IMG/VR virus record: IMGVR_UViG_3300021962_000022
DNA from: a virus
Lineage: Duplodnaviria; Caudoviricetes
Strand: one strand, 5' to 3'
DNA: 64,000 nucleotides
Program-made: the position numbers and the translations under genes
Notes under the pieces: generated by a model
What the model saw: the letters and a program-made list of their open reading frames with translations, nothing else
Told to the model about the DNA's origin: nothing
Databases searched by the model: none
Shown here: piece after piece, positions 17,964 through 20,695 of the stretch
Position numbering within the stretch: the first letter of the stretch is position 1
Layout: each line of letters opens with the position of its first letter

Positions 17964-18508
17964 TATGCACTCATTCTATCTCTAATTAATGGCTCCATAG
18001 CCGTGATGAAAGTAGGTTCAAATTTTCTAAGTTTTTCCAACATATCCATTGTTTCATCATCAAGAAGTAACATATCACCATTTAGATATAAACCACTTCC
18101 CTCACCTGAAATTAATACAAAATTTATTTCTAAATCCGGTATCTCACCATCGAATCTGATTTCAGTTTCTGTTATGGTAATCCCTGGTTTCAAATTTGCA
18201 ATTTGTGAAACTTGTTGTCTAAAAGAATCAACTATTTGTGAAATACTTGTTTTTTCTTCTTGTTTCAGTTGGGTATCTTCTTTGTCCGTAGATAATAATT
18301 TTACGTCCACATCATTTACGACCTCAATATTGTCATATTGTTTCTTTTCCGCGGAATTGTCAACACTTTGTGTGTTATCAGTCGGTTGTTGAACCTCCTC
18401 TGTTTCTTCGGTAAGTGATTTTTTAGCGTATACCGTTTCATTAAGAGACCTTAATGTTTTCAACATACCTTTTATATCATCGTACCCTGTATTTTTACTA
18501 TTGTTCAT
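17963..18508 (-). CDS. Hypothetical acidic protein
   Basis: 181 aa, translationally coupled. Confidence 0.6.
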   Translation of the reverse strand: MNNSKNTGYDDIKGMLKTLRSLNETVYAKKSLTEETEEVQQPTDNTQSVDNSAEKKQYDNIEVVNDVDVKLLSTDKEDTQLKQEEKTSISQIVDSFRQQVSQIANLKPGITITETEIRFDGEIPDLEINFVLISGEGSGLYLNGDMLLLDDETMDMLEKLRKFEPTFITAMEPLIRDRMSA

Positions 18509-19103
18509 TTTTAAAAATTAGTCTAAAATTAAATGATGGGTTTATATCTGTATAAATATTTGAGAAATTGGATTTACACACAACACCATTAAATTTAATA
18601 GCACTTTCTAAATATCCCTGAGAGGGTACAATTTGTTTTGGGATGTTATGTAAATCACAAATGTGTTCACATAGTTTGGATATTACCGATACTTGGTCAT
18701 CGTTATACTTGTCCCAGAAATAGTAGTTTCTCCAATTTCTAAAGAACGGTTCGCAACGATATGGGTCACCAATCCAATTGTGCATGAAACCGGTAACCGT
18801 GTTTTTATTCAACCAACCAAGATTTTCGACCGCAATCTTTATGAATTGCTTATCGATATATGGTTCGTCAAATGTATTTGAATAATAATTGGTGTCAAAA
18901 AGTTGGTAGACTGTACCTAACTTAGTTACAATAAAATGTGGAATTTCATCATACTTACCACATTTGCGGTATTTTAGTTTATTGATGAAATCGTCGGTTC
19001 TTCTACTTGTATCGTAAAGTAATATTTGACTTTTTTTCGTTTTCCGACGAACAACATTTAGAGTTTTACTATCTAAACCTTCTACGTTGTGTATTTCCAA
19101 CAT
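18498..19103 (-). CDS. Amidase_2-fold (N-acetylmuramoyl-L-alanine amidase-like) protein, apparently lacking Zn-binding histidines
   Basis: PHFIVTKLGTVYQL, IAVEN, YNDDQ...LCEHI, TDINPSF fit Amidase_2, but the expected HxT is YDT and the second His position is K. Confidence 0.7.
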   Translation of the reverse strand: MLEIHNVEGLDSKTLNVVRRKTKKSQILLYDTSRRTDDFINKLKYRKCGKYDEIPHFIVTKLGTVYQLFDTNYYSNTFDEPYIDKQFIKIAVENLGWLNKNTVTGFMHNWIGDPYRCEPFFRNWRNYYFWDKYNDDQVSVISKLCEHICDLHNIPKQIVPSQGYLESAIKFNGVVCKSNFSNIYTDINPSFNFRLIFKNEQ

Positions 19104-19217
19104 TTCTAGTTAACTTTTTACTGATAACAGAAGAAATGTCGTTGTCTTCTGTATTATTTATTTCCGAATTGTCCGAACCATAGTTTTCCAACGAGTCCAC
19201 CTCTGGTTGGAATTCTT

Positions 19218-20411
19218 CTAATTTTTTTTTTCTTCCTCATTGGGAAGTTCTTCTATTGGTTCGTCAATAACTTGTAGTTCTTCCACAACTTGTGGTTCAT
19301 CGATAACAGGTTCTTCGTTGTGTAAAGATATCTCTTCAGTGTATTCTTGTACCTCCGTTGGTGTTACAATTGTTTCTTCAACAATATGTTCTTCCTCAAC
19401 AACTTGAATTTCTTCTATTGGTTGCTGTGGTTCAACAACTTGTGGTTCTTCAATGACTTCAGGTTCATTGACCACTAACACCTGCTCAGGTTGTGGTTCT
19501 TCTATAACTTGTAGTTCATCAATAACAGGTTGTGGTTCTTCGATAATTTGAGGTTCCTCTATTACTTGTGGCTCTTCAACAATCTGTGGTTCTTCGATAA
19601 TTTGAGGTTCCTCTATTACTTGTGGCTCTTCAACAATCTGTGGTTCTTCAACGGGTTGAGGTTCCTCTATTACTTGTGGTTTTGAATCGTTATTTATTAA
19701 ATGGTCCTCAATCAAAAAAACATCATCAATTTCATTTTTATCCTCTTCTTCAGTAATTTCAGGTTCATTATCTTTAGGTTGTATATTTCTGTTAAGGTAC
19801 TTCTCAAGTAAATCTAAATCTTCCTGTTTTAATCTCACTCGAGAAACTTCACCCACAATATCTTTAGCGTCTACAACCGGTGTTTCTTCACCAACGGGTT
19901 CGGGAGATTCTTTCACCACAGGTATTTCCCCTACATTAGTGTTTTTTTCAGTCTGTGTGAATTTCACTAACATGTGTAAGAATGAAAGCGATATAATTGG
20001 TAACATACCTCCAGCGAAAAACGCTAAGAATCTCTTATGACCAACCATATCTGCAGGGTCAACACCAATGTATTCTAAGAGTGGTGAAACTAACTCAACC
20101 CAAGAGATAAACGCTTGACTTGTTATGTCTATATAAGAATACGCAAAATAAATGTTACCAATAAATTGAATCAAGGTAACAATACCAAATGGGAAGTAAA
20201 CTTTTTTTCCCATATCGGCAGAAATGGCAGCAAGTGCCGATAATGCGGCAATCTCAATACCGATTGAAAGGTAAATTGCCCAACTCAATGGGTTTGAAAT
20301 ACCATACCATTTAGTTACGTGTGAAATTGAAACTAATGCAACAGTTACAATCGGAATTAAAAACGCAGATATTATTAATGTTTTATAATTTTTACTGAAC
20401 CAATTTTTCAT
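19218..20411 (-). CDS. Multi-pass membrane protein with acidic (IEEPQV) low-complexity tail; possible -1 frameshift extension to 19069
   Basis: About 4 hydrophobic segments in the first 150 aa; EEPQ(V/I) repeats at 19430-19680; ends in an A10 run. Confidence 0.75.
   Translation of the reverse strand: MKNWFSKNYKTLIISAFLIPIVTVALVSISHVTKWYGISNPLSWAIYLSIGIEIAALSALAAISADMGKKVYFPFGIVTLIQFIGNIYFAYSYIDITSQAFISWVELVSPLLEYIGVDPADMVGHKRFLAFFAGGMLPIISLSFLHMLVKFTQTEKNTNVGEIPVVKESPEPVGEETPVVDAKDIVGEVSRVRLKQEDLDLLEKYLNRNIQPKDNEPEITEEEDKNEIDDVFLIEDHLINNDSKPQVIEEPQPVEEPQIVEEPQVIEEPQIIEEPQIVEEPQVIEEPQIIEEPQPVIDELQVIEEPQPEQVLVVNEPEVIEEPQVVEPQQPIEEIQVVEEEHIVEETIVTPTEVQEYTEEISLHNEEPVIDEPQVVEELQVIDEPIEELPNEEEKKN
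19222..19231 (-). other. A10 slippery run, candidate recoding site
   Basis: GAA AAA AAA AAT TAG in frame 0; the -1 frame stays open for 50 codons to TAG at 19069-19071. Confidence 0.55.
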
Positions 20412-20695
20412 TTAATACTATTTTCCAACTTTGTTATTTCATTGTCAATTTGTGTTTGACGAGTTACGTCTAATATTTTTCTATCAGTCGCTTGAATCAT
20501 TCTTTTTTCAGATTTCAATCCTTCAATTCTCAATCTAACATCCATTTCTTCTTTTGTGTAAGTTGAGTCTTTGATTGATTCAATTTCTTTTCTCATTTTT
20601 GAGAGTTCTCTTCCGTCACCGCAACTTTTGAATAAACCTAAAAGTGCAATAACTAAAACGATAATTGTGAAATTTTTTTGAATAAAATTTTTCAT
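20408..20695 (-). CDS. Putative lipoprotein / membrane-anchored coiled-coil protein
   Basis: Basic N-terminus, hydrophobic stretch, LFKS-C lipobox-like site; preceded by the TATTTAT motif. Confidence 0.55.
   Translation of the reverse strand: MKNFIQKNFTIIVLVIALLGLFKSCGDGRELSKMRKEIESIKDSTYTKEEMDVRLRIEGLKSEKRMIQATDRKILDVTRQTQIDNEITKLENSIK

Follow-up and report, generated by a model that had tools for sequence, protein, structure and literature searches.

A conserved run of ten adenines as a candidate RNA-polymerase slip site at the end of a membrane-protein gene in uncultured freshwater phages

The window analysed here, a whole stretch of 64,000 nucleotides (nt) from the virus record IMGVR_UViG_3300021962_000022 of IMG/VR (Duplodnaviria; Caudoviricetes), carries on its minus strand a gene for a membrane protein of 397 amino acids (aa), the reading frame of which is closed directly behind a run of exactly ten adenines (A10; 19231..19222). 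The initial annotation of this DNA had read the end of the gene as GAA AAA AAA AAT TAG with a run of ten, and this is what the sequence holds; the protein accordingly ends EEEKKN directly after the run. No other homopolymer of at least ten bases is present in the window. A TGA located four codons ahead of the run's end blocks the −1 frame, and the stop codon of the zero frame lies one codon downstream of the run. Behind the run, the −1 frame stays open for 50 codons without an ATG and spans the 114-nt gap that follows the membrane-protein gene, as had also been pointed out in the initial annotation. Such a gap is unusual in a window where the intergenic spacing is otherwise 0-40 nt. The last 35 nt of the −1 extension overlap the start of an amidase-like gene (ATG at 19103). 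The subject of this work is the run as a candidate slip site from which tails in the −1 and +1 frames could be reached. The features of the locus are:

19218..20411, minus strand: zero-frame open reading frame (ORF) of the membrane protein, 397 aa (sequence and ORF listing)
19222..19231, minus strand: candidate A10 slip site, the meeting point of all three reading frames (sequence)
19069..19221, minus strand: −1-frame extension of 50 codons and a stop (codons 19221..19072, stop 19071..19069; peptides in all frames, alignment)
19154..19222, minus strand: +1-frame tail of 22 codons and a stop (IRRIPTRGGLVGKLWFGQFGNK), which overlaps the first part of the −1 extension
19232..19247, minus strand: small RNA hairpin abutting the 5' side of the run, CUUCC (19247-19243), loop CAAUGA, GGAAG (19236-19232) (fold)
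18498..19103, minus strand: downstream partner gene of 201 aa with an Amidase_2 or peptidoglycan recognition protein (PGRP) fold (Pfam PF01510, E 7.7e-7; fold search)

Two scans of IMG/VR yielded 108 loci, which were reduced to 56 distinct loci by collapsing identical sequences (single loci are given handles such as L008 below). Thirty-six of the distinct loci show the same split layout, with the run 0-4 codons from the zero-frame stop and a −1 frame that is open for 114-417 nt from the run. The run is A10 in 32 of these, the window's own sequence included, and A11 in the remaining four; in the A11 cases a T following the run has changed to A and the same −1 shift is still needed. The question whether homologues also stop just behind a poly-A run with a conserved −1 frame is therefore answered positively by 36 distinct loci, which span 52-94% protein identity. 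Along with the frame, its offset, its Arg-rich tip and the downstream overlap are kept. The last codons of the membrane gene reach 32-38 nt into the amidase-like gene in nearly all long forms, including all split loci except L025, and about 8 nt in short forms. The outlier L025 (4941-5222) has A11, and its −1 frame, which carries an LYWE..NPNQ motif, stops 21 nt before the amidase-like start; the gap of 233 nt is no multiple of three, so an extra indel or a truncated tail may be present there.

The run is found in two codon phases, GAA AAA AAA AAN and TTA AAA AAA AAA. Across the loci, the −1 frame is closed 2-4 codons upstream of the run and the zero frame 0-4 codons downstream of it. Because stop codons flank the run closely on both sides, the shift must occur within the run itself, which is also the sole invariant block in an alignment of 24 loci. 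Runs of this length are rare around the gene: the flanking DNA of the related loci (395 kb) holds 101 runs of A8, 20 of A9, two of A10 and none longer, and both A10 runs outside the gene are ordinary in-frame Lys runs. The gene region of the same loci (70 kb) holds 10 runs of A8, five of A9, 37 of A10 and four of A11. On these counts, the sharp peak at A10 within the gene is explained only by selection.

In a tree built from the membrane domain and the amidase-like protein, the long-form clade (40 rows, 100% support in the Shimodaira-Hasegawa-like approximate likelihood ratio test) always has the run and its sister short-form clade (13 rows) never does; altogether, 16 short-form loci with proteins of 237-306 aa are without it. 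Four distinct loci (L008, L020 and L026/27) read the same tail in frame and still have A10 runs. This in-frame state arose at least two times and is nested among the split loci. L008 (4794, 5353) and L020 (4767, 5046) each have two A10 runs in the same gene, and slippage at either run would truncate the in-frame protein; the tail in the alternative frame behind the second of the L008 runs is similar to the +1 tail of L029.

The initial annotation had also stated that a one-base homopolymer assembly error would give the same picture. Indeed, one extra A would fuse the frames, so that a miscall could have split a single ORF; alternatively, the locus could be a recently frameshifted pseudogene in which the −1 frame is a relic. 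However, the same out-of-frame layout recurs in 36 distinct sequences from dozens of metagenomes, and independent assemblies of identical genotypes (13, 5, 4 and 4 copies) all have A10. A systematic miscall of A11 as A10 is excluded by the in-frame A10 runs of L008, L020 and L026/27. With run, offset and extension conserved in 36 loci and A10 in every repeat assembly, we reject the assembly error. Decay is contradicted by an extension that is open and under purifying selection across deep divergence, as described below. We give an artefact or a decaying gene practically no weight.

The length of the run could also vary in the DNA, if it changed during replication and the population were a mixture of genomes coding for the short and the long protein. 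Homopolymer runs of such length are mutable, and the in-frame and out-of-frame states were interchanged at least two times in the history of the family. Against such phase variation stand the uniform A10 of the independent assemblies of each genotype and a scan of metagenome contigs of the Joint Genome Institute with a pattern allowing A9 to A13, in which 10 contigs matched and all 10 had A10. The run-length polymorphism among near-identical genomes that marks a phase-variable locus was thus not seen. A fused protein with this tail was not found among the longer proteins of a collection of 15 billion proteins, which is weak evidence. Moreover, rare DNA variants could not hold the −1 and +1 frames under selection if the dominant genome never expresses them. 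We therefore consider phase variation at the DNA level very unlikely.

The −1 extension of the window consists of an acidic linker, a segment SSVISKK and the Arg-rich tip RNVGNTQRRRFR. In many loci, but not in the window, the extension contains a motif (D/E)LYWE..NPNQ(V/I)IYDLENN..IIP, and the tip motif K..xRNVxN(T/S)(Q/R)RRxxR is found in 30 of 30 aligned sequences. Between the +1-frame stop and the amidase-like start, column changes at positions 1, 2 and 3 of the −1-frame codons number 72, 63 and 183, and the ratio of non-synonymous to synonymous change (pN/pS) is 0.38 in the −1 frame versus 0.95 and 1.16 in the other frames (ten roughly independent pairs; Fisher 7e-20). Judged by this codon-level pattern in the sequences, the −1 frame is a real coding frame under purifying selection.

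Just behind the run, where the two alternative frames overlap, the changes are distributed differently, with 46, 74 and 49 on the same three positions. The excess lies on position 2 of the −1 frame, which is position 3 of the +1 frame. Of the three frames, the +1 frame has the lowest pN/pS in this segment at 0.48 (Fisher 3e-7), followed by the −1 frame with 0.83 and the zero frame with 0.98. A GKLWFG motif of the +1 frame is kept via synonymous codons for Leu (CTA, CTT, CTC, TTA) and Phe (TTC, TTT), and these changes are non-conservative in the −1 frame. The +1 ORF is 17-38 codons long in most lineages, as compared with a median of 3-11 codons after codon shuffling, and ends just before the conserved motifs of the −1 frame begin. 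Two types of +1 tail were found, ..RRVP..GxxGK(L/R)WFG..WG in the clade of the window and ..NPN(V/I/L)RI(N/D)R(F/L) in other loci. These patterns suggest that the +1 frame is also coding and gives a third isoform, while its signal of purifying selection is less strong than that of the −1 frame.

Both downstream frames might instead belong to separate small genes with their own starts. In the +1 frame of the window, ATG AGG AAG lies just upstream of the run, with the ATG four codons before it, many loci have an NTG at that position, and the −1 frame holds a GTG-initiated ORF of 43 aa (GTG at 19200). However, start codons are practically missing from the −1 frame in the interval from the upstream stop to the run, the only one being a distant TTG in one locus, and the NTG codons of the +1 frame are a by-product of GAT/GAG-GAA codons. 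Twelve loci, among them some with the conserved WFG motif, have no start codon in the +1 frame at all, so that this frame is reachable there only through the run. In L008, L020 and L026/27, the tail is the in-frame C-terminus of the membrane protein. Independent small genes are on these grounds highly improbable.

Directly upstream of the run, the transcript could form a small hairpin. Its 3' arm ends 0-1 nt from the run in most of 34 loci, and at the base before the run in the window. When the base before the run was forced to pair, with other positions of the same gene and shuffled sequences as controls, the mean constrained energy was −5.57 kcal/mol, as compared with −1.91 elsewhere in the gene (Wilcoxon 2e-7) and −2.04 in shuffles (Wilcoxon 2e-9); a hairpin of −4 kcal/mol or lower was obtained for 30 of 39 loci. 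The clades differ in the sequence of the stem and retain the pairing: CUUCC/GGAAG in the window, and CAUCAUC/GAUGAUG, CAUCUUC/GAAGAUG, CAUCAUU/AAUGAUG or CUUUAUCUG/CAGAUGAAG elsewhere. A single subclade shows two compensatory pairs, a small sample. No such hairpin is present in the in-frame loci L008 and L026. On the plus strand, the complement of the hairpin (19232-19247) was scored as terminator-like, which is probably a by-product, all genes here being on the minus strand. The coding strand of the 114-nt gap holds no promoter- or terminator-like signal.

Downstream of the run, no conserved structure was detected (RNAalifold on 24 loci, 0 conserved pairs), and the fold of the region in the window is not significant (z −1.36). 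A Shine-Dalgarno (SD)-like motif precedes only 2 of the 51 genes of the window, and starts are preceded by A/T-rich sequence. Such sparse SD motifs fit a host of the Bacteroidota type or an SD-independent initiation. A suppressor tRNA is not supported, as there are no tRNA genes in the window.

The tail encoded in the −1 frame might bind the product of the neighbouring gene. The membrane gene and its partner are adjacent in all 56 distinct loci. The partner protein has no signal peptide and would therefore be cytoplasmic, as would be the acidic tail of the membrane protein by the positive-inside rule. Its structure model has a predicted local distance difference test score (pLDDT) of 76.6 and matches AmiD, AmpDh2, PlyL and PGRPs in Foldseek (E 2e-5 and weaker), while PDB sequence and profile searches with the protein gave no match. 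At the first zinc-ligand position, the partner has L-Y-D-T in the long-form clade and C-H-T-S in the short-form clade, and at the second His position K or R in all aligned sequences; from these residues, the partner may be a non-catalytic, PGRP-like binder.

The 50-residue tail and the 201-aa partner were modelled as a complex, each with its own family alignment. The interface score ipSAE was 0.69 (runs 0.69, 0.01 and 0.73), and the best control reached 0.00. In the calibration, 58 of 80 solved complexes attained this mark, as did 2 of 110 mismatched pairs. Agreement between the runs extends to at least 18% of contacts, with a pLDDT of only 33-44 for the partner in the complex. In the modelled interface, residues 28-35 and 37 of the tail (DISSVISK.L) face residues 78-83, 164-169 and 180-183 of the partner. 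The −1 tail is thus predicted, from the complex model, to dock onto its amidase-fold neighbour. The initial annotation had expected two isoforms, with and without a basic C-terminus. The long form is supported by our data; a third form with the +1 tail is probable in addition, and the −1 tail has the appearance of a docking peptide, not of a basic tip alone.

Taken together, we think it probable that the A10 run is a programmed slip site at which polymerase slippage produces mixed mRNAs, and from them a short form, a form with the −1 tail and probably a form with the +1 tail. Under the direction of a sigma factor that the phage itself encodes, the RNA polymerase of the host would stutter on the ten template T's, helped by the nascent hairpin right behind the run, and would most likely leave a mixture of mRNAs with 9, 10, 11 or more A's. 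Translation of A10 mRNA would give the 397-aa short form, with the stop one codon after the run. From A11 (or A8) mRNA a form of about 447 aa would be made, the 50-residue tail of which, SSVISKK...RNVGNTQRRRFR, is predicted to dock on the amidase-fold neighbour, and A9 (or A12) mRNA would probably give a form with a basic, aromatic tail of 22 residues. The −1 extension might alternatively be entered by a −1 slip of the ribosome. The expected junction peptides are EEKKK-LEEFQPEVDSLENYGSDNSEINNTEDNDISSVISK or EEKKK-LEEF for the −1 form and EEKK-IRRIPTR for the +1 form. In our working model, only the long isoform would tether the partner to the membrane. As the stop codon of the long form lies 35 nt inside the partner gene, synthesis of the partner may be coupled to that of the long form. 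The isoform ratios, the tethering and the coupling are inferred.

The same site could act at the ribosome on a uniform A10 mRNA, either by −1 frameshifting on A_AAA_AAA, perhaps as a "shifty stop", or by sliding on poly-A. This possibility and several further observations weigh against the mechanism proposed above. An in-phase A_AAA_AAA heptamer is present in every locus and in both codon phases of the run; any A10 holds one, so that the heptamer does not discriminate between the mechanisms. A zero-frame stop codon follows the run directly or after one codon in most loci and could stimulate a ribosomal slip, and ribosomes can slide on poly-A or iterated AAA codons in E. coli (PMC4363877). The stretch is present in 14 DNA sequencing runs. 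Metatranscriptome contigs from three sets end at 19242 and 19259 or, in one fragment, extend over 19002-19141; the A10 run is covered by none of them. With 5 bp and −4.8 kcal/mol in the window, the hairpin is short, and roughly one locus in four is without it. The +1 tail is not universal: in L014 and L022 a stop codon ends it after 2-3 codons, and in L026/27 both alternative frames stay open for 1-3 codons only. One of the three docking runs failed, and confidence in the fold of the tail by itself is low.

Nevertheless, a slip of the ribosome would require no more than seven A's, whereas the run has at least ten in all cases and peaks sharply at that length. Neither a conserved downstream structure nor SD-like elements, which the phage does not use, are there to stimulate the ribosome, and the stop codon is 1-4 codons away in loci with the second codon phase. 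The conserved context is instead a 5' hairpin, a known stimulator of polymerase slippage and not of ribosomal slippage, and coding signatures in both the −1 and the +1 frame are easier to obtain via insertions and deletions in the RNA. A run of at least ten, a 5' hairpin, the lack of a downstream stimulator and two coding alternative frames together favour slippage of RNA polymerase over ribosomal frameshifting. We infer that the heterogeneity arises in the RNA and that polymerase slippage is more likely than a slip of the ribosome; the ribosomal explanation we regard as rather unlikely. The initial annotation had left the choice between a programmed −1 frameshift and transcriptional slippage open. 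A programmed shift of this kind is supported by the conserved run, its offset and the coding −1 frame, and the evidence leans to slippage.

The membrane protein itself has an N-terminal four-helix membrane domain (approximately residues 1-160), followed by an acidic, low-complexity tail rich in EEPQ-type repeats. The structure model of the domain shows four long helices. In an alignment of 22 relatives, the domain has a mean column identity of 82% with about 85 invariant residues. At 72-94% identity, it (19932-20411, minus strand) is far more conserved than any neighbouring gene, including that of the sigma factor; the identity floor is 45% for the sigma factor and 35% for the amidase-like protein. 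The membrane domain therefore appears to have a strongly constrained function, perhaps a contact with a conserved membrane machine of the host. Searches of Pfam, NCBIfam and PDB gave no match to the membrane protein and PHROGs nothing useful, matches in the Atlas were virus-only, unnamed clusters, and Foldseek found no match to the model of the N-terminal membrane domain. In a collection of phage GenBank entries, there was no DNA match and one distant protein match (31%) to an unannotated uncultured phage; no cultured relative was present in it. The acidic tail contains tandem EEPQ(V/I)(V/I)-type repeats (19400-19700, minus strand), the copy number of which varies between near-identical phages; for example, the protein has 397 aa in the window and 381 aa in L001 at 94% identity.

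The gene lies in a syntenic block of nine genes, which encode a 153-aa protein, the sigma factor, a 95-aa protein, the membrane protein, the amidase-like protein and proteins of 181, 79, 240 and 441 aa. The 95-aa protein (20408-20695, minus strand) has an N-terminal membrane helix and a coiled coil, and its gene overlaps the start of the membrane gene by ATGA. It was detected by tblastn in 43 of the 56 loci and could be a third member of the module. A membrane gene beside an Amidase_2-fold gene is also the arrangement of a holin-endolysin cassette. This reading is possible but weak: the pair lies in a conserved block headed by a sigma-factor gene and beside genes of recombination and replication, holins are usually far less conserved than this membrane domain, and the long-form clade has no His at the first zinc-ligand position.

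The closest known case is tssM1 of Citrobacter rodentium, together with tssM of Yersinia pseudotuberculosis (PMC4256274). There too, the stop codon of a gene for an inner-membrane protein follows closely on a run of 10-11 A's, and the frame is restored by additional A's in the mRNA. The protein is made in two lengths, which differ in the presence of a C-terminal part that binds a partner, and neither an SD element nor a downstream structure is involved. For C. rodentium tssM1, mRNAs with 10-15 A's were measured from an A11 template (PMC4256274). In contrast to the phage gene, tssM1 is a bacterial secretion gene in which the heterogeneity of run length in the RNA has been measured, and the phage site differs from it by the 5' hairpin, the probable third frame, the overlap with the partner gene and the conservation across a viral clade.

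Further parallels concern single elements of the phage site. In spa13/spa32 (and mxiE) of the type III secretion operon of Shigella flexneri, transcriptional slippage takes place on T or A runs of about nine, as outlined in PMC5009743. As in the phage, the C-terminal extension made by slippage overlaps the start of the next gene, and in spa13 slippage affects the expression of that gene. While this coupling is experimental in spa13/spa32, in the phage it would follow only from the conserved overlap of 8-38 nt. In the IS630 element of Roseiflexus (Penno et al. 2015, PMC4413344, as described in PMC5009743), a nascent hairpin lying immediately 5' of the slip motif helps the transcript to realign, also in the forward direction, which gives a deletion. 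The phage hairpin has the same position, and a one-base deletion here would enter the +1 frame. The IS630 motif is U5C5 and wholly hairpin-dependent, whereas the A10 of the phage should slip alone and its hairpin is small and not universal. In Thermus thermophilus dnaX (tau/gamma), a run of nine likewise yields mixed mRNAs, full-length and truncated products, and entry into both alternative frames; those frames merely terminate, whereas the phage frames each appear to encode a conserved tail. A common N-terminus with different C-termini from two or three frames, made by stuttering, is also known from paramyxovirus P/V/W and potyvirus P3N-PIPO, but these are RNA viruses with their own RNA-dependent polymerases, while the polymerase used by a DNA phage is presumably the multisubunit enzyme of the bacterium. 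E. coli dnaX and G/GT of phage lambda also give two products in a set ratio, from an ORF with a slippery, A-rich heptamer close to its end. In both, however, seven slippery bases are enough when aided by an SD-like element, a downstream hairpin or both; at the phage site, neither stimulator is present or conserved.

A small number of bacterial genes, as well as RNA viruses, provide well-documented cases of programmed polymerase slippage. A literature search found no paper describing slippage for this gene family or for any phage gene. The mechanism belongs to a known kind; new here are the coding signature of the +1 frame, in-frame loci that have retained the run, and the docking predicted for the −1 tail. 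Uncultured freshwater phages of a large lineage, with contigs of up to about 335 kb, have kept the candidate slip site. Its natural variants comprise both out-of-frame phases, the in-frame state, and loci that have or lack the hairpin, and they could be used as a mutational series. Gene callers split or truncate the gene everywhere, so that the long isoform, a possible third isoform and the link to the partner are invisible in annotations. We tentatively propose, as a possibility with somewhat less than an even chance, that a single slip site feeds three frames of a dual-coded segment to give a tail-less, a basic/aromatic and a docking form, that tail and partner are produced together from A11 mRNAs alone, that stuttering sets the stoichiometry of a membrane complex, and that the in-frame lineages have inverted the ratio and kept the run. 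If this three-frame reading is true, the gene would be a compact prokaryotic counterpart of paramyxovirus P/V/W and a clear example of stoichiometry control by transcript heterogeneity.

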